Notes: a model not told the origin generated them from the sequence alone. Shown: positions 11,643 through 24,343, counted from the first letter of the stretch. The stretch: DNA of 64,000 nt from Promethearchaeota archaeon (GCA_016839765.1 JAEOTP010000015.1:93474-157473), one strand, 5' to 3'. Program-made: numbers and translations.

Positions 11643-12905
11643 ATGATTGTATCAAAAGAAATTCAAGATTTTTTATTAAATGATGCATTAGAAAGATTTT
11701 TAAGATATGTTAAGGTATGGACAACCTCGGATGAGAGCTCTACTTCTTTGCCATCGACAAATAATCAATTAGAACTTGCAAAAAAGTTAGTAGAAGAATT
11801 AAAACAACTTGGTTTAGAAGATGTTATTCTAGATGAGTTGGGATTTGTTTATGCTTATCTTCCACCAAATCAAGGTTTTGAACACGCTAAGCCTATAGGT
11901 TTTTTAGCACACTTAGATACCGCCTCTAGCGTAAGTGGTAAAGACGTAAAACCTGTTATACATAGAAATTATAATGGAAGTGAAATTAAATTTGCTGCTG
12001 ATAAGGAGTTACTCTTAACTACTAATGATTCACCTCAATTAAAGGAATATATTGGTCTAGATATAATTACCACACAAGGAGATACTCTGTTAGGAGCTGA
12101 TGATAAAGCTGGAATTGCTGAAATTATAGCCGCGTGTTCCGCTTGGAAAAAATTCCCAGAATTAAAGCATGGTCCAATAATTATATGCTTTACTCCTGAT
12201 GAGGAAATTGGCAAAGGTATTGATAATATCAATGAGAAAAAATTAGCTAAAATTTGTTATACAATAGATGGAGGAGAAATGGGAGAATTAGTATTTGAAT
12301 GTTTTGATGCATGGCTCGCTACTATTAAATTTAAAGGTTTAAGTGTTCATCCGGGGTATGCTAAAAGTTTGATGATTAATACAATCCAAATTGCTAGTAG
12401 ATTTTTTAGTGAACTTCCTGAATCTGAATCACCTGAGCATACAGAAAATAGAGAAGGTTATTTTTATTTAACAAGATTGCAAGGAACAACTGAGGAATCA
12501 AATGCGCGGTTATTAATTAGAGATTTTGAACAAAAAAATAACCAGAGACGAGTTGATTATCTAAAAAATTTAAAAAAGACTTATGAAATACGCTATCCTG
12601 GTTTAGTTATCGAAATAGATTTTCTTCATCAATATGAAAATATGTTAAAATTTATAGAAAAGAAACCAATTATTGTTAATTTAGCTAAAAAAGCAATTGA
12701 AAAAACAGGGTTAAAAGTAAAACTTCAACCAATAAGAGGAGGAACAGATGGAGCTCGATTGAGTGCAAAAGGAATTCTTACGCCAAACATTTTTACAGGA
12801 GGATTATTTGCTCACTCCAGAAAAGAATATATACCAACTCTAGCCTTACAGAAAACTGCTGAAGTTATACTTTATTTAGCTGAATTATGGACTGAAGATC
12901 AATGA
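11643..12905 (+). CDS. pepT: Peptidase T (M20B tripeptide aminopeptidase)
   Basis: ERFLRYVKVWTTSDESS N-terminus, metal ligands in HLDT, GADDKAGIAEI and DEEIGKG, and C-terminal IRGGTDGARLS...TGG..HS..E. Confidence 0.85.
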   Translation: MIVSKEIQDFLLNDALERFLRYVKVWTTSDESSTSLPSTNNQLELAKKLVEELKQLGLEDVILDELGFVYAYLPPNQGFEHAKPIGFLAHLDTASSVSGKDVKPVIHRNYNGSEIKFAADKELLLTTNDSPQLKEYIGLDIITTQGDTLLGADDKAGIAEIIAACSAWKKFPELKHGPIIICFTPDEEIGKGIDNINEKKLAKICYTIDGGEMGELVFECFDAWLATIKFKGLSVHPGYAKSLMINTIQIASRFFSELPESESPEHTENREGYFYLTRLQGTTEESNARLLIRDFEQKNNQRRVDYLKNLKKTYEIRYPGLVIEIDFLHQYENMLKFIEKKPIIVNLAKKAIEKTGLKVKLQPIRGGTDGARLSAKGILTPNIFTGGLFAHSRKEYIPTLALQKTAEVILYLAELWTEDQ

Positions 12906-12925: not shown

Positions 12926-14149
12926 TTATTCTCCTTTCTTAATAATTTTAGAGAAATCTGTAAGGACAAATATTATAATACAGATAAATAATAGAATTGA
13001 TATATATATAAATGCCCATGTAAAAGAAAATATATCATAAATTAAGCCAAAAATTAGAGATTCTGCCAAAGATATAAGGCCTACTGAGAGATAATAATAT
13101 CCATAAGCACGTCCCCTTTTTTTCTTACCTGATAAATCTGCAATATAAGCTCTTGAAATTGGATCTACAGAGGCTAAATAATATCCGTATACAATGAAAA
13201 TGATAAATATCAATATTATTGAAAGAAAAGAAATTTCAATAGGAAAAGCCAAAAGAATACAGGAGATTAATAATACCGACAAACCAATTATAATAATTGG
13301 TTTACGACCAATTTTATCAGAAAAAGTTCCGGTTATAGGAGAAAAGAATGCATAAACAACATTGCTAATTAAGTATAAGATAGGAATAAAAGAAATTCCT
13401 GGGATGTAATTTAAAGCTCTGATTTGGAGGAATGCGATATCTAAGCTAGCAAATTCAATAACTCCTAAAACAATAATTAATTTAATAAAATTTCTATCAA
13501 TTTTTTCATCTTTAGGTTTTTCTTCCTTAAAACCTAAAATTTTATCAATTTCATTAGGATCGACATCTTTTACTGTAAATATCAAAGCAATTGCCAGAAC
13601 ACCCGGTACGATTGAAAAATATATAATTTGTGAAAGTGACCATGTTAAATATATGAAAATAAATGCTAAAAGTGAACCTATTACTGCGCCTAATGTATCC
13701 ATTGCCCTATGTAAACCAAATGTTTTACCCCTATCAATAGCATAGTAAGATATGAGGGTGTCTCTTGAAGAAGTTCTGATTCCCTTTCCAAAACGATCAA
13801 TAGATTTTAATCCTAACACAAATTCCCATGATGGACTCAAACCGATAAGAGGTTTGGATAAATTAGAGAGGGTATACCCGGCAACAACAAAAGGTTTCCT
13901 TCTATTTATCTTGTCACTTAACCACCCTGTAATACCTTTTAAAATATTTGAAATGGCAATAGTAACACCTGAAATTAAGCCAATAATTACAACAGTCCCC
14001 CCAATTTCCCGAATAAATAATGGCAGGATACTTTGGATCATTTCACTTGAAATATCTGTGAATAAAGACACCAATCCCATGATAAATACTTGAACAGAGA
14101 CTCCCAGAATTAACTTTTGTGAACGATGAGAATTATTCCCTTGTGCCAT
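12926..14149 (-). CDS. MFS-type transporter
   Basis: 407 aa, about 12 TM helices. Loop motif GWLSDKINRRKP between TM2 and TM3 (MFS signature G-x-x-x-D-[RK]-x-G-R-[RK]-like), repeated in the second half (FSDKIGRKP). Confidence 0.8.
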   Translation of the reverse strand: MAQGNNSHRSQKLILGVSVQVFIMGLVSLFTDISSEMIQSILPLFIREIGGTVVIIGLISGVTIAISNILKGITGWLSDKINRRKPFVVAGYTLSNLSKPLIGLSPSWEFVLGLKSIDRFGKGIRTSSRDTLISYYAIDRGKTFGLHRAMDTLGAVIGSLLAFIFIYLTWSLSQIIYFSIVPGVLAIALIFTVKDVDPNEIDKILGFKEEKPKDEKIDRNFIKLIIVLGVIEFASLDIAFLQIRALNYIPGISFIPILYLISNVVYAFFSPITGTFSDKIGRKPIIIIGLSVLLISCILLAFPIEISFLSIILIFIIFIVYGYYLASVDPISRAYIADLSGKKKRGRAYGYYYLSVGLISLAESLIFGLIYDIFSFTWAFIYISILLFICIIIFVLTDFSKIIKKGE

Positions 14150-14207
14150 TTTTAGTAACTTTTTTTATTAGAATAAATATATTAAAAATAATTGAAAAAA
14201 AAAAATT

Positions 14208-14843
14208 ATGATTCCAATGTCTGAAAAAAATACTTTAATGATTATTGATGGAACGCTTAAAAGTGTAGAAGACAATTTTAAACAATTTATTGATGTTTTG
14301 GAAACCGCAAAGAATGAGTTAATTAATTTTGAAGAGGCTACTAAACTGCTAGAAACTGAAAAGCTAGCACTGGAGCGAGAAAAAGCAGAATTAGAACTAG
14401 AAAAGCAAAAGTTAGAAGCTGAAAAGGCAGAAAAAGAACAAAAAATAGGGGAATTAACGAGTGAACAGTTACGATTATTAGATGAATATAAGAATTTAAA
14501 AATTGAATTAAAAAAATTTATGAAAATTGCTCAGGATCAAGAAGAATCTGAATATAATTTTGATAGAATTAAAGCTTTATTATCCATTACTATGTTACTA
14601 ATACAGGAAATATGGCAGGGCCAGCCTCATTATAGAATTCTATTGACACTCCATGGTGATAAAGAAGAAATGACACGCGAAGAAATAAAAAATACTACTG
14701 GGATTTCTGGAGCAATGGTTCTAAGGGCTGTTCATGAATTAGCAAATATAGATGTATTGCAATACGATGAGGAAAAATCTCTCGTTAAATTGAAAAGAAG
14801 ACTATTTGCAAAAAAAGCTTTAGAAAAAAAACCAGAACAATAA
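14208..14843 (+). CDS. Coiled-coil protein with C-terminal wHTH
   Basis: 211 aa. E/K heptad region (LALEREKAELELEKQKLEAEKAEKEQK), then an HTH-like ILLTLHGDKEEMTREEIKNTTGISGAMVLRAVHELANIDVLQY. Confidence 0.6.
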   Translation: MIPMSEKNTLMIIDGTLKSVEDNFKQFIDVLETAKNELINFEEATKLLETEKLALEREKAELELEKQKLEAEKAEKEQKIGELTSEQLRLLDEYKNLKIELKKFMKIAQDQEESEYNFDRIKALLSITMLLIQEIWQGQPHYRILLTLHGDKEEMTREEIKNTTGISGAMVLRAVHELANIDVLQYDEEKSLVKLKRRLFAKKALEKKPEQ

Positions 14844-14872: not shown

Positions 14873-15937
14873 TTATTTTACTATTACCATCTCATGCAAG
14901 GTATTTCCCTGTTCTTTGTAACGCGTACCATTATGAGTCAATTTTATCTCAAAATCTGAATTGAATCTGAAATATCCTGGGTTTAGTTTTAAAATATTTT
15001 TTGCTAAAAACCGTAATATAGGATTAAATTCGGAAAGTAAATGATCAGCATCAATAATTTCATTAACATTGAGAATAATTTCATTTTGTTCAGAAAGTTT
15101 GAACTTTAAAGTTTTGGGATAATTATTTCTTGCTTTTTCATTATATTGAAAATTTTCTTCTATCAATTCATATTCACCTGTGCTAAGAAGGATATCCTCA
15201 TTTTTTGCGAGCATAAAAACTTTAATAGCATAGTCATCCATTTTCTTATTACATTTAATATGTGCATATATGATAGTAAAATTTTCTGAATAAACACGCC
15301 CCCAATGCCAATAATCAACAACTTTAATAAGATTAAAATTAATCCAGTTGTGGTCGTGGTACCCAATCCCTTTCACTGATATTGTCTTACTATGTATTTT
15401 AATTGTTCCTTCTACTCTTGCTCTTGGTAAAGGTATAACCCATCCAAATTCACCTAAAGTACCAAATAGAGTATATCCACTACCAGGCATCCATCCAGGA
15501 ACTTGAGCAGTGTATTTTAAATGCAAACCAAATTCACCTTCATCTATAAGTATTTCATAAGCAGGGAATTTCTCATTTGAATAATCAACTTTTATATAAT
15601 TATTTCCAATTCGCACATCTGCGATTTCACGAGACACTTTCAAATCAGAACGGCTATAATTGTATACATTTTGTATTTTTTCTCCATTGGGTTTATAGAT
15701 TGTGATTTCTACCCCAGTTTTCCCTGTACGTTCATGTTTTGCTCGAAAAAACCCAACCACAGTATAGCCTCCTTCAAGTCGAGCATCAAAATACCACCAT
15801 TCAGTATTCCCTCTTTTTTTCATATTAATATGCAAAGCATCAAATTCGGGTTTAAAGACAGCTATACTTTTGTCTTTTCTTCCTGGTCCAGACCATGCTT
15901 CAAGTACTTTAGGCTTATTATTTTTCTTTTTTCCCAA
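14873..15937 (-). CDS. CrtC/AttH-like (hydroxyneurosporene-synthase-type, lipocalin-like) protein
   Basis: 354 aa. N-terminal NTEWWYFDARLEGGY resembles the EWWY signature of the CrtC/AttH family. Mostly beta composition. Confidence 0.5.
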   Translation of the reverse strand: MGKKKNNKPKVLEAWSGPGRKDKSIAVFKPEFDALHINMKKRGNTEWWYFDARLEGGYTVVGFFRAKHERTGKTGVEITIYKPNGEKIQNVYNYSRSDLKVSREIADVRIGNNYIKVDYSNEKFPAYEILIDEGEFGLHLKYTAQVPGWMPGSGYTLFGTLGEFGWVIPLPRARVEGTIKIHSKTISVKGIGYHDHNWINFNLIKVVDYWHWGRVYSENFTIIYAHIKCNKKMDDYAIKVFMLAKNEDILLSTGEYELIEENFQYNEKARNNYPKTLKFKLSEQNEIILNVNEIIDADHLLSEFNPILRFLAKNILKLNPGYFRFNSDFEIKLTHNGTRYKEQGNTLHEMVIVK

Positions 15938-15976
15938 TTTTTATACACCTTTAGTTATTATTTAATTAAAAAAATC

Positions 15977-16393
15977 TTACTTTTTTATAAGTTCAAAAAT
16001 TTTTAGTAGAGAGAGTAATTTCAAAATCCCCTTCATTTTCACTTTTCCTAATAACCAGCTACTTACTATATTTAATAAGGAAATTCTATCCATTGCTAGC
16101 GCGAGAAATATTTGTGAGTCCATAGAGATAAAACCATCCCATCCAATAATTTTCTTCTTCAAATTAGATTTGGGTTTATTTGGAATACTTTCAACCTTTA
16201 GACGCCCCTCATTGATAGTTACTAGTGCGGCATGATTTAAATTAGAAGCATTGATTAGATATTTTTTCTTAACATTTTTGAACTTTTTTTGGAATTCTCG
16301 ATTCTCATTTAGAGGTTCCATTATATTTTTTATAAGTCCTGCAAATCCTCTTGCTTCTGGATTAATTAATTCATTTTTATTCATTTGTTTCAC
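15977..16393 (-). CDS. SCP2 sterol/lipid-carrier-like domain protein
   Basis: 138 aa. The C-terminus LLGKVKMKGILKLLSLLKIFE matches the G-K-[LV]-K-[IM]-x-G amphipathic end of SCP2 domains. Confidence 0.6.
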   Translation of the reverse strand: MKQMNKNELINPEARGFAGLIKNIMEPLNENREFQKKFKNVKKKYLINASNLNHAALVTINEGRLKVESIPNKPKSNLKKKIIGWDGFISMDSQIFLALAMDRISLLNIVSSWLLGKVKMKGILKLLSLLKIFELIKK

Positions 16394-16412
16394 TTACTTT
16401 ATATTTTACTTT

Positions 16413-17972
16413 TTATTTTGCAGAAATATAAAATCCCGAATCGGCAATTCCATTCGGATCAAAAGCTTTCTTTATTTTTCTTAACCATTTATGATAATCC
16501 ATCATATGTGGACCAAACTTATCATGCATCCTATCACCTTCTACGAAAAATGGAGCTCCAAGATGTTTGATTAAATCAAATTGATAGTTTTCTTCCATAT
16601 TTTCAGCCATTCCCTTAACGCTTTTCTCAGTGGTTTGATCAAACAATGTAGGAGATTCAACATGGAAATAATGTCCTGATTCGTAGGAAGTCATCCATAC
16701 ACCCTCTCCAAAATCATTTGCAATTACTCCTTTCTTTATATATTTCTTTTTTAAAGGGATACTCATTTTGGTAGTATTTAAACACAATGGTGCTGAGTCG
16801 CATTGACCCTTCGAGGATTGAAAACCTCCTGTTGCGATAAATCCGTGAAGACCTAAATTTGAACGTAATGCTTCTGCATAAAATAAGGAATTGGGAGTAT
16901 ATTTAGTTCCAATTATATTTTCTAATTTAAATTCTGCCATTATCTTATTCATTACTTTTTGCTTATATTCAAATTCACGACTAGTTCTTGCTGCTATGAC
17001 TATTACCAAGGGTGCGTGGGTACTAGCGATTGGGATTTTATCCATTAATGATTCAATACTATTAGAAAATATTGCTCCTAAACCATAACCTGATAAATGA
17101 CTACAAATGAATGAGATTTCCTCCTCTTCAACCGCTAAAAAGACTTTTTCAAGATATTTATAGTTTTTACAATCCATAACGTATAATTTCATAAAATCAG
17201 GAATTTCAAATTCATAATTAGGAGAAATTCCTTTTAATTTAAACTTGGTACTGCATGGATACGGAAAGAGTTTAAAAGCAACCTTTGTAAACACACCTAT
17301 ACCTGATTTTGCTCCCGCCCAACCACGCATAATTCCTCGCAAACTTGGTCCCGGCCCGTCTCCACTAAACCAATCGGGATGGTTTTTAAGGCCAGTAGAC
17401 CCTAACCTTAAGATTTCTCCATCAGGTAATACCCATTCAACACCTAAAACATTTCGAGCACTGTGTCCTGTGTGAGGAGAGGTAAATCCTGGTCCATTCA
17501 TGCTAGTAGCGCTAGCTAAGGGTGAAACTTGAGGTCCTGCTCCCGGCATATGAACAGTTAAATCATATTTCATAGTTTCTGCTTGTAATTGTGCGCCACT
17601 TACATACGGCTCAACAACAGCATAAAGATTTTTATCATCAATTTTTACAATCTTATTCATTCTTCGTAAATCAAGAATAATGCAATTTTCTGATGATGGT
17701 TGATTCCATGGACCGAGTCCAGTAGATTGAGCTTTAAATTGAATATGATATTTATTACAGAGTTTAACAATTTGTTGAACTTCTTCTACACTAGAAGGTA
17801 ATATTATGGCTTTTGGAATAGGAGAAAAAGGAATAGGCTCTTTTTCTTCCATACAATTTACTAATTCCATACACCAATTATATGCATATGCATTTGTCAT
17901 TACTTCACTATCATCTATGTTTTCTGGACCAACTAAGTTTTGAAATTGTTCTAATATCTGTTTTTTTAACAT
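16413..17972 (-). CDS. FAD-binding (PCMH-type) oxidase subunit, GlcD/FAD-linked oxidase family
   Basis: 519 aa. N-terminal FAD_binding_4-like layout (IILPSSVEEVQQIVKLCNKY...ILDLRRMNKIVKIDDKNLYAVVEPYVSG) and family-typical C-terminus KIKKAFDPNGIADSG. Confidence 0.75.
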   Translation of the reverse strand: MLKKQILEQFQNLVGPENIDDSEVMTNAYAYNWCMELVNCMEEKEPIPFSPIPKAIILPSSVEEVQQIVKLCNKYHIQFKAQSTGLGPWNQPSSENCIILDLRRMNKIVKIDDKNLYAVVEPYVSGAQLQAETMKYDLTVHMPGAGPQVSPLASATSMNGPGFTSPHTGHSARNVLGVEWVLPDGEILRLGSTGLKNHPDWFSGDGPGPSLRGIMRGWAGAKSGIGVFTKVAFKLFPYPCSTKFKLKGISPNYEFEIPDFMKLYVMDCKNYKYLEKVFLAVEEEEISFICSHLSGYGLGAIFSNSIESLMDKIPIASTHAPLVIVIAARTSREFEYKQKVMNKIMAEFKLENIIGTKYTPNSLFYAEALRSNLGLHGFIATGGFQSSKGQCDSAPLCLNTTKMSIPLKKKYIKKGVIANDFGEGVWMTSYESGHYFHVESPTLFDQTTEKSVKGMAENMEENYQFDLIKHLGAPFFVEGDRMHDKFGPHMMDYHKWLRKIKKAFDPNGIADSGFYISAK

Positions 17973-17974
17973 GA

Positions 17975-19294
17975 TTATGCTACCTCTGCTAATACGTGTT
18001 TCAATTTTTCAGGTTCTAAGCCCAAGGCCATTAATATTAATTCACTAATATCATAATATTTTAATTTTGAACCGCTCTCACTTATTCCATCTTGTAAATT
18101 TGTAGAGCAAAATGGACAAGCAGATAATATAACATCAGCTCCAGTATCTTCCGCCTCTTCTATTCTTATTTTTGCGGTATTAAGTGCCATTTCAGGAAAT
18201 GCGGATTTTACGCCTGCTCCAGCTCCACAACAGTAAGCATATTCTCTAATTCTTTCCATTTCTATAAATTTTAATCCAGGAATTTTTTTTAGGATGTTTC
18301 TAGGAGGATCGTAGATACCAGCTTTACCAGTACGTTTGGGTTTAGGAGGTATGTTAATAGATATTAAAGGTATTAATTTAACCTCTTCTCCATCCCATTG
18401 TTCATATCTCTCTGCATTCCTTCCTAAATGGCAGGGATCATGATAAGTTGCTGATATTGGTATTTCTTTAGTTAACTTTAATTTACCCGCTTCAAGTAAC
18501 TCATTAAAGAATTCTACAGTATGACACACTTTAAAATCATAATCTCGATATAAGGGATAATCAACCTTGAAAGTATCGTAACATCCTGCACAGCTGAATA
18601 CAACTGTTTCTATTCCTTTTGATTCAATGATATCGACATTCTTATTTAGAAACTCTTGAAAAGTATGGATTTCACCGGTTCTTAATATTGGACTACCGCA
18701 GCAATATTCTTCGTCTTGTAAAATACGAAATGCTACTCCTGCTGCGTTCATTATTCTAGCTGCAGCTATTGCCATTTCTTTTCTCCTATATGATGATGTA
18801 CATCCAATGTAATAGAGTAATTTGGCATTAGGATCAATTTTAATATCATCAGGGAGCCACTTCATTCTATTTTCATGCGGTTCGCTATATGGATTGTTAA
18901 CATTTTTAACTGCGTCGGTATAGGCTTTCTGTTTTGGCATTGGACCACAACCAGCTTCAACTAATTTCTCCCTTAGTCTCATTATTATTTCAAGTGGTTC
19001 TAATGTATTAAGAAATTTACAAGCAATAGCACAATTACCACATTCAGTACATTTATATACGATATCACGTAGTTCCTCAGAGGGTTTAATTCTGCCCATT
19101 TCTAACGCTAGAGCTAAAATAATCTTTCCACCTCCACTATAAGGATGATAATTATAAAGATCAATAGCAGGGCAAGCTGTTGCATACTTTTGACTCTTAA
19201 TTTGGACTTGAGGAATCCATTTACAAATAGAACAGCGCAAACAACGTTTTATCATTTTTTGATATTCTTTTTCATCCATCTTTATCCTATTCAT
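17975..19294 (-). CDS. Fe-S subunit with two CCG domains (GlcF/HdrD-like)
   Basis: 439 aa. Ferredoxin-like clusters CLRCSICKW and CTECGNCAIAC, plus two cysteine-rich CCG motifs (YCCGSP, YCCGAGAG). Start lies 2 nt before the next gene. Confidence 0.8.
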   Translation of the reverse strand: MNRIKMDEKEYQKMIKRCLRCSICKWIPQVQIKSQKYATACPAIDLYNYHPYSGGGKIILALALEMGRIKPSEELRDIVYKCTECGNCAIACKFLNTLEPLEIIMRLREKLVEAGCGPMPKQKAYTDAVKNVNNPYSEPHENRMKWLPDDIKIDPNAKLLYYIGCTSSYRRKEMAIAAARIMNAAGVAFRILQDEEYCCGSPILRTGEIHTFQEFLNKNVDIIESKGIETVVFSCAGCYDTFKVDYPLYRDYDFKVCHTVEFFNELLEAGKLKLTKEIPISATYHDPCHLGRNAERYEQWDGEEVKLIPLISINIPPKPKRTGKAGIYDPPRNILKKIPGLKFIEMERIREYAYCCGAGAGVKSAFPEMALNTAKIRIEEAEDTGADVILSACPFCSTNLQDGISESGSKLKYYDISELILMALGLEPEKLKHVLAEVA

Positions 19295-19321
19295 TTTCTT
19301 TTTTTTTGATAAAATCTAGAA

Positions 19322-20791
19322 TTAATCATCAAAACAGAGAACCCCGGGATTTAAAACATTATTTGGGTCAAAAATACGTTTAATTTTTTTTAAAGCTATC
19401 GATGTTTGTTCAATATGTCTTGAATACATTTCTTTTGCCCAATAACCATATGGGCGATTAAAGAACGCTCCAGAATCCATTAAATCAATGCTAATTTCTG
19501 AGAATTTCCTTTTGATTTCATTTAATTTAATATCATTGTTTGGATCGTAAAAATAATCAAATTCACAATGGTATGAAGTCCCTTGATTAATAGGTTGAAT
19601 ATATATACCTAAATCTTCAGAGTAATTAGATTCTACCATCAAGATATAATTAGAGATATTCTCAAAATTACTAAGAAAGAAAAGATCTTGATAATAACCT
19701 TTATATCTCGTTCTCCATGGTTTTGAAGTAGATTCATTTACACACCTTAAAATAACGTCGGAATTAATTAGATCAGATTTCTCTAAATGGACCAAATTAG
19801 ATTCTCTTATAAGATCATTAATATCTCCTTCAAGATAATCCAATTTATCCTCAGCCAAATCTCCTCTCCCAGATATTATAAAAATCATATTCCATTTTAA
19901 AAGAGATTTGGCTAAATTTTCTATTTCTTCACTTGTGTTTCTAACTAAACTTGCTAAATTTAAATTATTTAAAATAAAAGTTTCATCACATAATCTATAC
20001 TTTGCTAGTTGTTTTTGAAAATTTAATAATTCTTCAATATTATTCGATTGATAATGGAATACTTTTTGGATTGTAGGAATTAATTCTAATTTCAAAGTAG
20101 CCCATGTGACAACTCCTAAACTACCTTGTGCTCCTTGTATCACTCTAAAGGGGCTAAATTGTGTAGGTCCCATAGGATTCAATTGAGCTTGCCCAGCTTT
20201 TCGTTGCTGAGAGATTGTTCCTGGTCCTGCAGCTGTTCCCGTTCTAAACAAATCTCCTGTGCCAAAAACGACTTCCGTACACAACAATGGATCTGAGCTA
20301 TCCCAATGATAACGAGGGATAACGATAGGTTCCCTTTCTAGTGCGCTTGTAAGTACTGATTTTGTTCCAGTAGGATAGAGCGGTAATAATAATCTCAAAC
20401 CTTTTTGCTTAAGTTTAGGGATTAGATCTCTAAAAGTAACGCCTGGTTCAATCATAACAACACGATTTTTCTTATCAAGGGAAATTATTTTATTCATCTT
20501 AGATAAATTAATAATAACACAATTATCTTTCCTAGGAACTGTATCTCCATGTTGCTTAAGTTTAGAGCTTGAGCTTACAGGAATGATATAAAAATTCATT
20601 TGATTGGCTAATTTTAAAATTTTTAATATTTCTTGCGTTTTAGACGGCCAAATAACAAATTTTGGCACTTCTCCCATAAAAAAACTCATATCTGTAGAAT
20701 ATTCCTTTAAAATCTCTGGATTATTTGTAATTTTTTTAGAACCGCAGATTTTAGCTAATTGTTGAGATAAAATAAGCTCGCTTATCTTCAT
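19322..20791 (-). CDS. Second FAD-binding (PCMH-type) oxidase subunit (GlcE/GlcD-like)
   Basis: VIWPSKTQEILKILKLANQMNFYIIPVSSSS...INLSKMNKIISLDKKNRVVMIEPGVTF and C-terminal KIKRIFDPNNVLNPGV. ATG at 20791 is preferred because AGGGGAT lies a few nt upstream. The track ORF opens at 20812. Confidence 0.75.
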   Translation of the reverse strand: MKISELILSQQLAKICGSKKITNNPEILKEYSTDMSFFMGEVPKFVIWPSKTQEILKILKLANQMNFYIIPVSSSSKLKQHGDTVPRKDNCVIINLSKMNKIISLDKKNRVVMIEPGVTFRDLIPKLKQKGLRLLLPLYPTGTKSVLTSALEREPIVIPRYHWDSSDPLLCTEVVFGTGDLFRTGTAAGPGTISQQRKAGQAQLNPMGPTQFSPFRVIQGAQGSLGVVTWATLKLELIPTIQKVFHYQSNNIEELLNFQKQLAKYRLCDETFILNNLNLASLVRNTSEEIENLAKSLLKWNMIFIISGRGDLAEDKLDYLEGDINDLIRESNLVHLEKSDLINSDVILRCVNESTSKPWRTRYKGYYQDLFFLSNFENISNYILMVESNYSEDLGIYIQPINQGTSYHCEFDYFYDPNNDIKLNEIKRKFSEISIDLMDSGAFFNRPYGYWAKEMYSRHIEQTSIALKKIKRIFDPNNVLNPGVLCFDD

Positions 20792-20927
20792 AACATCCCC
20801 TTTAAAGTGCAATAACTAACAACATTTTTTAATCAATAAAGATGTTTTGATTACTATAATTAAGTGAATTTTATATATAGATTAAATCTAATTCTTTTTA
20901 TACTAAAAAAATGTGGGTGGAAAATGA

Positions 20928-22334
20928 TTGAAAACTTATGACTTAATTATTGTTGGTGCTGGACCTGGTGGTTCTATGGCAGCTAAAACTGCTGCTGAAA
21001 ATGGGCTTAAAACAATATTTTTTGAAAGAGGTAGAAAGCCTGGTGAAAAGAATTCTTCTGGTTGTGGATTAGGACCACGTATGTGGAAACAATTCCCATC
21101 CATGATGAAAGATTTAACTCCAGAAAAATGTCCTTCTCTGAGAGCAGGAGCAGCGGCTAGAAATTATTTCATTAATGAAGAAGGCATAGTTGTTGGCTAT
21201 GTTATGACGCGTCCAACTGAATCAGTATCTTATGAACCGGCCAAAAGCTGGATTACAATGAATTGTTATAGAAGCGAATTTGACCCATGGATTGCTGAAT
21301 TTGCTACTTATGCAGGTGCTGAGTTAAAAAATTCAACTCTAATTGTGAATCTCTTAAAAAAAGATGGAAACATTTGTGGGGTGGTTGATGAACACGGAGA
21401 AAAATATAAAGCACCTATTGTTATTGGAGCAGATGGTGCTGTTTCAATGGTTGCGAAACAGAGCGGTTTAAGGACAAGATGGGCTCAGGATCAAATTACA
21501 GTTACTCCCCAATATGATTTTTTTGCTCCCCCAAATAAAATTGATGATATTATGGGAGATGAAGCACTTGCTGTTTGGTGGTCTGCAATATTCCCCGCAT
21601 CATATCAAGTTTTCTTTCATGATGGTTTTCATCAAGGTTTAGGAAATTGGTTGAATAAATGGGATAAGAATCCGTTATTTTATCTAAATCGTGTTATAAA
21701 CCTGAAATATTATCAAAGATTATTAAAAATTCTAGATGCTAAACCAAGAGAACTACAATCGCATCTTCTTCCTTGGTTAAAATATCCCTACAACACACAC
21801 ACCGATGGTGTTATTTTAATTGGAGATGCTGGCGGATTTCCTTGCCCTCTCGAAGCTGAAGGAATTTATCCTGCAATGGTGACAGGAAAAATTGCAGCAG
21901 AAGTTGCTGCTGAAGCAATTACATCTGAAGATATCTCAAAAAGTGCCCTCTCCAAATTTGATGAAATGTGGAAAAAAACAAGTGTTGGGGAAGAATTTGA
22001 AGCGGGAGAGGAATTATATAATATCTGGAAAGCATTGCCCTTTAGTCCTAAGGAGACGATGAGTTGGTTTGTACCGATGTTCATGGAAGTAATGGGAGGG
22101 ATTTATGATTGGTCCCAGCCACACGCGAAGCGGGTTCGCCAGATTGCTGCTCATGTCAAATCATATATGCCAAAAGCTTTACCGTTCATTATGAAATATG
22201 TATTTCCTCTAGTGGCAAAAATATTTGAGAATGATCTTGATAAAATAATGGACCCCCAGAAGTTAATGTCTGTAATTCCAAAAATTATGGATTTGCTCCC
22301 GAAAAAGAAAAAGCAAAGGAGGGAAAAATTATGA
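20928..22334 (+). CDS. FixC-like / geranylgeranyl-reductase-family flavoprotein
   Basis: N-terminal dinucleotide fold YDLIIVGAGPGGSMAAKTAAENGLK, then GEKNSSGCGLG and IGDAGGF. TTG start. Its stop overlaps the next gene's start (ATGA). Confidence 0.7.
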   Translation: MKTYDLIIVGAGPGGSMAAKTAAENGLKTIFFERGRKPGEKNSSGCGLGPRMWKQFPSMMKDLTPEKCPSLRAGAAARNYFINEEGIVVGYVMTRPTESVSYEPAKSWITMNCYRSEFDPWIAEFATYAGAELKNSTLIVNLLKKDGNICGVVDEHGEKYKAPIVIGADGAVSMVAKQSGLRTRWAQDQITVTPQYDFFAPPNKIDDIMGDEALAVWWSAIFPASYQVFFHDGFHQGLGNWLNKWDKNPLFYLNRVINLKYYQRLLKILDAKPRELQSHLLPWLKYPYNTHTDGVILIGDAGGFPCPLEAEGIYPAMVTGKIAAEVAAEAITSEDISKSALSKFDEMWKKTSVGEEFEAGEELYNIWKALPFSPKETMSWFVPMFMEVMGGIYDWSQPHAKRVRQIAAHVKSYMPKALPFIMKYVFPLVAKIFENDLDKIMDPQKLMSVIPKIMDLLPKKKKQRREKL

Positions 22335-22600
22335 AGATTGAAATTGATGGATTAACGAAACATATTCTAGGAACTGGTGATTTTATTTCAATCGATATTA
22401 GTAAATGTAATAATTGCGGTAGTTGTATTCTTGTTTGTCTGGTAAATTTATGGGGTAGAAAAGATAATAGGATATATATTTCAGAGGATTATAAAGAGAA
22501 ATGTTTAGAATGCGCTGCTTGTTATCAGGTTTGCGATGCTGGTGCTATAAGTTTCCAGTATCCAGCGGGTGGTACAGGAGTGATTTATGAAAAAGGCTAA
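22331..22600 (+). CDS. FixX-like ferredoxin
   Basis: 89 aa. CNNCGSCILVC and CLECAACYQVC clusters. The C-terminus ISFQYPAGGTGVIYEKG resembles the FixX ending (W/F-x-Y-P-x-G-G-x-G-V-x-[FY]). Confidence 0.7.
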   Translation: MKIEIDGLTKHILGTGDFISIDISKCNNCGSCILVCLVNLWGRKDNRIYISEDYKEKCLECAACYQVCDAGAISFQYPAGGTGVIYEKG

Positions 22601-23258: not shown

Positions 23259-24242
23259 TCAGCTTATATATTTTGCTTGTCCTGAAGAGCCTAAGACTTC
23301 TTTATTCTTTCTTATTATCATTTCAATTAATTCTTGACGCGCAGTTCCAAGATACAGTCTTGGATCAAAATGATCTACGTGTTCTTTAAAATATTTTCTT
23401 ATCATAGCTGTAAAAAGTATGCGGCTATCTGTAGCTACATTAATCTTACATACACCATGTTGCGTCGCTTTTCTTAATTGAGTTTCTGGCACTCCAAAAC
23501 TCTTTTTTAAGGATCCTCCATAATTATTAACTATGTCAACATATTTTTTTGGGACTGAGGATGCTCCATGAAGTACTATTGGAAATTTTCCTAATCTCTT
23601 TCTTATCTCTTGGAGAATATCAAATCTTAGTTCTGGTATATCTTCTGCTCTTTCTACCTTAAATTTATAGGCCCCATGAGATGTTCCTATAGCTATTGCC
23701 AAGGAATCACATCCCGTTCTATTTACAAAATCTTCCACTTGTTCGGGGTCGGTATATTGTTGAATTTCTACTTCTTTACCTTTATCTTCTCTGCCTATAA
23801 TCCCTAATTCTGCTTCTACATTAACGTTTCTTTGATGAGCATAATTTGCTACTCTTTTTGTTATCATAACGTTCTTCTGATATTCTAAATGACTTCCATC
23901 AAACATTACACTAGAAAAACCGATATCAATACATGCTTTACACGATTCAAAGGAACTTCCATGATCTAAATGTAGTGCAATTGGAATATCATACCCTAAA
24001 TCTTTTGACATTTTAACGCATCCTTCTCCCATATATCGAATCATTGTTTTATTTGCATACTTTAAGGAAGTTTGGGTAATCTGAATAATGACGGGTGAAT
24101 TTGAATCTCCACAACCAATAATAATTCCTTGTAATTGCTCAAGATTACTTGCATTATATCCAGGTATAGCGAATTTCCTTTCCAAAGCTACTTCAAACAT
24201 TTCTTTTGTATTTGAAAGCCCCAATTCTTCAAATGAAACCAT
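23259..24242 (-). CDS. fba: Class II (metal-dependent) fructose-bisphosphate aldolase
   Basis: IPIALHLDHG, EAELG, IAIGTSHGAYKF and PIVLHGASSVP match class II FBA metal and substrate motifs. ATG at 24242 preferred over the GTG at 24251. Confidence 0.85.
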   Translation of the reverse strand: MVSFEELGLSNTKEMFEVALERKFAIPGYNASNLEQLQGIIIGCGDSNSPVIIQITQTSLKYANKTMIRYMGEGCVKMSKDLGYDIPIALHLDHGSSFESCKACIDIGFSSVMFDGSHLEYQKNVMITKRVANYAHQRNVNVEAELGIIGREDKGKEVEIQQYTDPEQVEDFVNRTGCDSLAIAIGTSHGAYKFKVERAEDIPELRFDILQEIRKRLGKFPIVLHGASSVPKKYVDIVNNYGGSLKKSFGVPETQLRKATQHGVCKINVATDSRILFTAMIRKYFKEHVDHFDPRLYLGTARQELIEMIIRKNKEVLGSSGQAKYIS

Positions 24243-24343
24243 ATTTATCACTTTTTATATTGTTAAAATTAATTATATAATATCAGTATAAAAAAGCTTA
24301 AAAATTGAAGAGTTAAATTTAGATTAAGTATAATTTTGTAATT

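Follow-up and report, generated by a model that had tools for sequence, protein, structure and literature searches.

Which compound is handled by a gene set that has the make-up of a glycolate oxidase and is co-encoded with proteins of lipid-handling kinds? The question is raised by a five-gene, minus-strand operon in a 64,000-nucleotide (nt) stretch of DNA from an Asgard archaeon, Promethearchaeota archaeon (GCA_016839765.1 JAEOTP010000015.1:93474-157473; here called the window, meaning the whole stretch, contig C64 of a 3.3 Mb genome, G000, that is 96% complete). A preliminary description had named, in order, a flavin adenine dinucleotide (FAD) subunit, a two-CCG iron-sulfur (Fe-S) subunit, a second FAD subunit, a sterol carrier protein 2 (SCP2)-like protein and an EWWY-motif CrtC/AttH-like protein, and had suggested that the substrate may be a hydrophobic hydroxy compound, derived from isoprenoids or fatty acyl chains, as opposed to glycolate or lactate. 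The five co-oriented open reading frames do lie where it had placed them, with gaps of 27, 2, 19 and 39 nt (Table 1), and Pfam and fold searches uphold its gene calls. We refer to the first three genes as the trio (FAD1, CCG and FAD2). A divergent pair of genes that the description had not included, for a geranylgeranyl reductase (GGR)-family flavoprotein and a ferredoxin (Fd), is part of the same conserved module. Judging from sequence and gene context, we put it at slightly better than even that these genes form an accessory Asgard module for the redox chemistry and hydration of a hydrophobic, most likely isoprenoid, compound.

A first alternative makes the trio a conventional dehydrogenase of D-2-hydroxyacids such as D-lactate or glycolate, built like GlcDEF or Dld-HdrD and feeding Hdr-like chemistry, and leaves the lipid-type neighbours unrelated to it. 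The architecture is indeed GlcDEF-like: two FAD_binding_4 subunits are co-encoded with a GlcF-type subunit bearing two [4Fe-4S] motifs and two CCG domains, the three genes stand together in 20 of 20 Asgard loci and in most of 20 non-Asgard loci, and JGI labels homologues 'glycolate oxidase'. The subunit make-up and the two-domain fold of FAD2 are shared with the wider GlcDEF/LDHD/D2HGDH/YdiJ group, although the gene order here is FAD-FeS-FAD in place of the D-E-F of GlcDEF, and both flavoproteins here are of ~500 amino acids (aa). The active site, however, speaks against this alternative. In mouse LDHD (mLDHD) the hydroxyacid site is built from the Mn ligands His398, His405 and Glu442 and the catalytic His443 (PMC10589216). 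The arginine that binds the carboxylate in mLDHD is Arg347. Escherichia coli GlcD carries the Mn and catalytic residues, with identical spacing, as HAGDGNMH at residue 386 and GEHG at 429, and both HxGDGNxH and GEHG are found in a bona fide GlcD-like gene that served as positive control (L078). By motif scan, as distinct from structural superposition, both motifs are absent from FAD1, FAD2 and all their homologues in 47 related loci (L031-L077), those of Asgard archaea, Bathyarchaeia and Thermodesulfobacteriota included. The core family appears to lack the Mn and carboxylate site of D-2-hydroxyacid dehydrogenases.

Profile scores and phylogeny point the same way. Against the TIGR00387 GlcD hidden Markov model (NCBIfam) the two flavoproteins score 73.3 and 68.4 bits, versus a cut-off of 567.9, and their identity to E. 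coli GlcD is 19-24%, restricted to the FAD domain. The FAD-oxidase_C cap (PF02913, Pfam) has no match in FAD2 and is matched in FAD1 by a 30-residue C-terminal tail only, at 19.7 bits versus a cut-off of 21.2. With the GlcD-like control and three E. coli proteins (GlcD, YdiJ and GlcE) as references, a maximum-likelihood tree of 69 sequences puts FAD1 and FAD2 in sister clades of their own, each fully supported (100%), and relative to these four references both lie outside. FAD1 and FAD2 are paralogues of ancient origin, and their clades branch in congruent order (Thermodesulfobacteriota, Hecatellales, Bathyarchaeia, Asgard). FAD2 is the most conserved flavoprotein subunit, with more than 120 clusters at least 69% identical, all from Asgard metagenome-assembled genomes (MAGs). 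Low GlcD scores, missing motifs and a separate clade thus keep the FAD subunits from falling squarely within the D-lactate and glycolate dehydrogenases, and we regard a hydroxyacid dehydrogenase with unrelated neighbours as very unlikely. Since the family lacks the hydroxyacid active site, its 'glycolate oxidase' annotations are probably wrong.

The context of the trio in other genomes carries the argument further. We surveyed 201 Asgard genomes, scoring the trio by its FAD2 orthologue and taking at least 63% identity to define a GGR orthologue. The trio is present in 54 of them, about a quarter, and in 9 of 15 within the window's own genus, where several complete genomes are without it. All 37 genomes with an AttH-like orthologue also carry the trio, as do 39 of the 42 with a GGR orthologue; the three GGR-only exceptions are genomes 83-86% complete, and in one of them the gene abuts a contig end. 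That the AttH-like gene always, and the GGR gene nearly always, comes with the trio is hard to ascribe to chance, which again argues against a hydroxyacid enzyme with lipid-type bystanders. The CrtC-like linkage seen in the window recurs elsewhere: in Asgard families f1, f7, f13 and f22 the AttH-like gene comes after the trio, and it is confined to trio genomes. In f1 the GGR-Fd pair is divergent from FAD1-CCG-FAD2-SCP2-AttH; in one genus of f7 a single operon reads PadR-GGR-Fd-FAD1-CCG-FAD2-AttH, and in two other f7 genera a canonical SCP2 stands where the AttH-like gene would be; in f13 the order is FAD1-CCG-FAD2-AttH, and in f22 it is AttH-CCG-FAD1/FAD2 fusion. Because gene order is kept at only 40-50% protein identity, the arrangement is not due to chance. 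Names attached to homologues are Lokiarchaeota, Promethearchaeota, Thorarchaeota and Hermodarchaeota. At G104:C1:78043-78378 and G149:C45:1520-1804, in two near-complete genomes without the trio, no more than the C-terminal part survives of one gene, either the GGR orthologue (82% identical) or the AttH-like gene (46%); these look like remnants of module loss.

The small SCP2-like protein shows its affinity in its fold. No Pfam domain, PF02036 included, matches the 138-aa protein even at an E-value of 10, and its profile returns chance-level ribosomal matches only from the PDB. Its AlphaFold model, built with 25 homologues, has a predicted local distance difference test score (pLDDT) of 87.6, and essentially all of the top ~45 Foldseek matches in the PDB are SCP2 or SCP2-like domains (E down to 2e-5, template-modelling (TM) scores 0.55-0.69), among them archaeal AF1534, UbiJ-SCP2 and SCP2/lipid-binding domains of alkylsulfatases. 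Since the fold matches are essentially all SCP2, the 'SCP2-like' label is right at fold level, and the modelled structure suggests a lipid carrier. The family comprises 153 homologous clusters without a Pfam domain, and every named source is an Asgard MAG. The linkage of an SCP2-type protein to the trio likewise extends to another family, in that a canonical SCP2 (PF02036, 27-31 bits) directly follows FAD2 in the two f7 genera mentioned above (L036 and L042). By BLAST and hhalign, the window protein and the canonical SCP2 of other loci align over a 9-residue GKVKMKG-type stretch only. In the absence of detectable similarity between the two types, an SCP2-fold carrier has either been recruited twice or diverged beyond recognition.

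The AttH-like protein has a two-barrel (two-lipocalin) layout, with a match to the CrtC N-terminal lipocalin domain PF07143 (31.4 bits, cut-off 22.5) and one to Svf1_C in its second half (26.3, cut-off 25). Its score of 18.9 bits against the CrtC equivalog NF045922 is so far under the cut-off of 400 that we take it to be a member of the superfamily, not a CrtC orthologue. The stretches EWWYFDA, GYHDHNW and YWxWGR are invariant, the sole PDB profile match is 7a0q, a 'CrtC domain-containing protein', and every neighbour of the protein in the Atlas is of the CrtC/DA_N/Svf1/AttH set. These features point to a putative isoprenoid C=C hydratase or lipid binder. Among 251 Bathyarchaeia genomes one AttH-like gene was found, 29% identical and in an unrelated context, and the 80 high-GC soil relatives listed by a metagenome scan include none linked to FAD, CCG or GGR genes.

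Further weight for an isoprenoid substrate comes from the divergent GGR paralogue. Against TIGR02032 it scores 128.8 bits over the whole model (positions 1-297), below the cut-off of 158.8. It has the GxGxxG motif and, within SSGCG, a Cys46 that we equate, by position and motif rather than by alignment, with Cys47 of the Sulfolobus acidocaldarius enzyme; its nearest approach to YxWxFP is VWWSAIFP. The catalytic Cys47 and a PxxYxWxFP motif are the hallmarks of GGR, and archaeal GGR paralogues have been proposed to saturate other terpenoids (PMC10821996). In each of the 12 loci where the GGR orthologue adjoins the module, the gene for the 2x[4Fe-4S] ferredoxin, with two CxxCxxCxxxC motifs, keeps its place at the side of GGR. 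A comparable pair is known from Methanosarcina acetivorans, whose GGR depends on an adjacently encoded ferredoxin (PMC10821996). The window pair resembles it in the translational coupling of a GGR flavoprotein to a small 2x[4Fe-4S] ferredoxin and probably in the GGR-type Cys, and differs in its sub-cut-off score, the lack of an exact YxWxFP, a ~70-aa C-terminal extension and the number of its kin, being one of at least nine GGR-family paralogues in the genome. With at least nine paralogues present, this copy is specialised. We rejected a role as the housekeeping digeranylgeranylglyceryl phosphate (DGGGP) reductase: five of the other paralogues score higher, passing the TIGR02032 cut-off, and the presence of this one tracks the trio.

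The pair could instead be of the FixC/FixX type, with the trio serving as a generic redox hub between ETF, ferredoxin and a thiol/disulfide pool, and with no isoprenoid involved. The N-terminal half of the GGR-like protein does match the FixC model PRK10157, many archaeal GGR paralogues beside ferredoxin or ETF genes carry FixC-type domains (PMC10821996), the source genome has two EtfAB pairs and ~24 CCG proteins, and in one deltaproteobacterium EtfBA genes come after the trio. That FixC match, however, amounts to 78.9 bits versus a cut-off of 610, while the GGR model is matched at full length; the Cys that we equate with the GGR-typical one is present; and the window and the 20 Asgard loci examined have no EtfAB gene close to the module. 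Such a hub would also give no account of the SCP2 and AttH-like partners. We consider a FixC-type pair highly improbable. As an observation on the genome, its set of Hdr-like and prenyl-reductase-like proteins is unusually large, the CCG proteins accounting for 46 CCG-domain matches.

A further alternative concerns the flavoproteins themselves, since their fold does not settle their chemistry. The PDB sequence matches of both are confined to the FAD domain and are headed by the 4-phenol oxidoreductases p-cresol methylhydroxylase (PCMH), eugenol oxidase and vanillyl-alcohol oxidase (VAO); LDHD and glycolate oxidase come lower, and alkyl-dihydroxyacetonephosphate (alkyl-DHAP) synthase is next in line for FAD1 and near the bottom of the list for FAD2. 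The AlphaFold2 model of FAD2 (pLDDT 79.7) has a complete VAO-type two-domain fold. VIA-align ranks mouse LDHD first (Z 30.8, which favours a hydroxyacid enzyme), with eugenol oxidase and PCMH at Z ~28.8, and Foldseek ranks PCMH 1dii first. FAD2 is thus equally close to LDHD and to eugenol oxidase/PCMH, and the fold alone is not decisive; we therefore relied on the active-site motifs. The trio might then be an anaerobic counterpart of PCMH/VAO that acts on 4-alkyl or prenylated phenols or quinone-type compounds, with GGR, AttH and SCP2 processing a prenyl chain and PadR sensing a phenolic. Beyond the PDB matches, this would agree with the PadR regulators ahead of the operon in family f7, with GGR relatives such as MenJ that reduce quinone side chains, and with a U32 gene, of the family that includes UbiU and UbiV, after the trio in Bathyarchaeia. 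The sequence similarity to PCMH and VAO is nevertheless confined to the FAD-binding domain, the electron partner here is a CCG Fe-S subunit versus cytochrome c or O2 there, and no aromatic-pathway genes were found nearby among the Pfam and NCBIfam assignments of the window genes. A phenolic substrate seems to us unlikely.

The Fe-S subunit and the flavoproteins together suggest a heterotrimer-type dehydrogenase core, made of two paralogous VAO/PCMH-fold flavoproteins and an HdrD/GlcF-type subunit. The middle gene matches PF02754 in two stretches (119.6 bits), Fer4_8 and the 4Fe-4S dicluster domain in Pfam; it has CCG at residues 198 and 355, CxxCxxCxxxC at residue 82 and an N-terminal CxxCxxC variant. 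HdrD, TfrB, GlpC and GlcF share its domain layout and both CCG motifs; it differs from them in lacking a membrane partner and in scoring under every NCBIfam equivalog cut-off, the best being TfrB (210 bits, cut-off 385). A natural FAD1-FAD2 fusion of 1071-1076 aa in Asgard family f22 (L047:8646-14201 of G130; G062) supports a physical complex of the two flavoproteins.

The core is not confined to Asgard archaea. A profile search of 1.84 billion representatives returned 304 clusters (50% identity) at E <= 1e-30, with Lokiarchaeia, Jordarchaeum and Bathyarchaeia among the named members, and a scan of species-representative genomes found the FAD1-CCG-FAD2 trio also in Bathyarchaeia, Hecatellales, Thermodesulfobacteriota, one deltaproteobacterium and Dehalococcoidia. 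In Bathyarchaeia (L059:13353-15136, L061:7118-8892) the gene ahead of the trio encodes an aldo-keto reductase with a fused 4Fe-4S domain, and the peptidase-U32 family gene and a 265-aa gene without a family match come after the trio. U32 proteins include the O2-independent hydroxylases UbiU and UbiV, partners of the SCP2 protein UbiT on polyprenyl-phenol intermediates. By analogy, UbiT-UbiU-UbiV resembles the module in having an SCP2 protein serve soluble redox enzymes on a membrane isoprenoid (UbiJ-SCP2 being one of the fold matches above), and differs in its U32 protein, which the window lacks and which stands beside the trio in Bathyarchaeia. In Hecatellales the trio neighbours a CoA ligase and a thiolase. 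In Thermodesulfobacteriota and deltaproteobacteria (L064:10585-13613; also L065, L068, L070 and L077) it is followed by a small ferredoxin, an aldehyde:ferredoxin-oxidoreductase (AOR)-like gene and a second two-CCG protein, neighbours that suggest an alcohol-to-aldehyde-to-acid route in those bacteria. The EtfBA pair of the one deltaproteobacterium, which comes after the trio with a CoA ligase, recalls the setting of lactate dehydrogenases and so favours the hydroxyacid alternative. None of five non-Asgard trio genomes has an AttH-like gene.

A cultured alphaproteobacterium, Allorhizobium ampelinum S4, carries a FAD1-(Fe-S)-FAD2 trio on plasmid pAtS4e (L167:6195-10689, AVI_RS28390-28380), where the N-terminal half of FAD2 is 41% identical to that of the window; it offers a tractable entry to the chemistry of the core enzyme. 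This trio adjoins helix-turn-helix (HTH) and MarR regulators, a major facilitator superfamily (MFS) transporter and a porin.

Several of these observations weigh against an isoprenoid module and bear on how far it can be taken. Outside Asgard archaea the neighbours are ETF, AOR-like, aldo-keto-reductase and U32 genes, without AttH or GGR, which argues that the core is not intrinsically a lipid enzyme; it is probably a general, uncharacterised dehydrogenase whose substrate differs by lineage. Within the Asgard sample, 17 of the 54 trio-bearing genomes are without the AttH-like gene. The FAD2 fold fails to separate the hydroxyacid from the 4-phenol subfamily, the gap being ~2 Z units. The GGR paralogue, under its family cut-off and without an exact YxWxFP, may be a FixC-type electron-transfer protein, and the two EtfAB pairs of the genome exist, on contigs other than that of the module. 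Finally, hydration of the AttH type yields tertiary alcohols. A flavoprotein is unable to oxidise these, and the succession of steps set out below is therefore conjecture. Even so, with an SCP2 carrier, an AttH-like protein and a GGR-Fd pair tied to the trio by adjacency and phyletic nesting, and with the hydroxyacid site missing, an isoprenoid substrate is the best supported; the preliminary suggestion of a hydrophobic substrate gains support from the missing motifs and from the CrtC-like and SCP2 synteny in other genomes.

How might such a module work? The SCP2 protein would lift a lipid from the membrane and present it to soluble enzymes; the GGR paralogue, reduced by ferredoxin, would saturate prenyl C=C bonds; the AttH-like protein would hydrate a prenyl C=C bond, or merely hold the chain; and one flavoprotein would oxidise this molecule at a C-OH group or an activated C-H, an allylic or primary prenyl alcohol being one candidate. 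From FAD, electrons would travel by way of the [4Fe-4S] clusters to the CCG site, and from there to a disulfide or to ferredoxin. The module may serve either to remodel the cell's own lipids or to break down sedimentary isoprenoids such as phytol-type alcohols. We lean towards a conditional or catabolic role, as opposed to core membrane synthesis, given the patchy distribution within the genus, the PadR gene of family f7 and an acyl-CoA dehydrogenase gene that comes after FAD2 in one f1 genome. As the module is accessory, its bearing on the core membrane-lipid biochemistry of Asgard archaea is speculative.

The closest parallel in lipid chemistry is offered by Ted-Hgs. The AttH-like hydratase Hgs makes hydroxylated glycerol dialkyl glycerol tetraether (hydroxy-GDGT) by hydrating double bonds in archaeal lipid chains, and its homologues occur almost only in Methanobacteriota and Bathyarchaeota, Asgard archaea being described as without Hgs (Garcia, Chadwick, Nayak and Welander 2025, bioRxiv 10.1101/2025.10.20.683597). 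We set our AttH-like protein beside Hgs by description and gene context rather than by comparison with the sequence of the characterised Hgs, GBSed_1000338311. What the two systems would share is the genomic linkage of an AttH-like hydratase to an enzyme altering the saturation of archaeal isoprenoids, along with an interplay with GGR-type saturation. The partner differs: in Ted-Hgs it is a B12-dependent radical S-adenosylmethionine (radical-SAM) desaturase, here a flavoprotein/Fe-S trio, and no large radical-SAM gene lies beside the AttH-like gene in any Asgard locus examined. A bolder version, which we hold to be a long shot, is that the trio, GGR-Fd and the AttH-like protein fix where double bonds lie in the cell's own ether lipids by a flavin-based, radical-SAM-independent route, with hydration to follow and SCP2 shuttling the lipid. 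If that were true, hydroxylated or partly unsaturated archaeol or GDGT would be expected, and the module would be a functional Ted-Hgs analogue in a lineage reported to be without Hgs. The isoprenoid module in its more general form matters in another respect: a large, uncharacterised trio family, found in anaerobic archaea and bacteria and routinely labelled 'glycolate oxidase', is in Asgard archaea wired to three kinds of lipid-handling protein.

Table 1. Features of the module in the window (positions counted from the first nucleotide of the stretch).
Feature	Position	Strand	Remarks
FAD1, VAO/PCMH-superfamily flavoprotein subunit	19322..20812	-	496 aa as called; PF01565 (FAD_binding_4) 61.5 bits
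HdrD/GlcF/TfrB-type Fe-S subunit	17975..19294	-	439 aa; N-terminal two-[4Fe-4S] ferredoxin domain and two CCG domains
FAD2, VAO/PCMH-superfamily flavoprotein subunit	16413..17972	-	519 aa; PF01565 94.7 bits, full domain
SCP2-fold small protein	15977..16393	-	138 aa as called; AlphaFold model and Foldseek
CrtC/AttH/Svf1-superfamily two-lipocalin protein	14873..15937	-	354 aa; PF07143 31.4 bits, Svf1_C
Divergent intergenic region, AT-rich	20813..20927	.	115 nt; between dehydrogenase operon and GGR-ferredoxin pair
GGR-family flavoprotein paralogue	20928..22334	+	468 aa; TTG start behind GGTGG
2x[4Fe-4S] ferredoxin	22331..22600	+	89 aa; start overlaps GGR stop by 4 nt; Fer4 matches

Two of the called starts probably lie too far upstream. 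FAD1 probably begins at an ATG at 20791, behind GGGGA, rather than at the called TTG at 20812, for a protein of 489 aa, and the SCP2-fold gene at an ATG at 16384 rather than at the called GTG at 16393; the latter choice gives 135 aa, the length of most homologues. A search of the divergent intergenic region for a shared operator found weak AT-rich inverted repeats only and established no regulator site.

Other genes enter the operon or its surroundings in individual lineages. In one locus (L039:12180-13067, genome G192) a 295-aa response-regulator receiver gene lies between FAD1 and CCG, the remaining operon being intact. In family f19 a TdeIII-type restriction endonuclease gene directly follows FAD2 (L033:5888-6670, L034:8286-9038), and no AttH-like gene was found in that family. 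A 122-aa gene after FAD2 in L043 and a 92-aa gene upstream of FAD1 in L031 have no family match. In the window the module is flanked by genes for an MFS transporter, a 211-aa coiled-coil protein and a class II fructose-bisphosphate aldolase (12926-14843 and 23259-24251), whose positions are kept within family f1 (L039-L041) and not in other families. The surroundings of the window operon also include an M20 peptidase gene (11643-12905), and another is divergent to the fusion operon of family f22.

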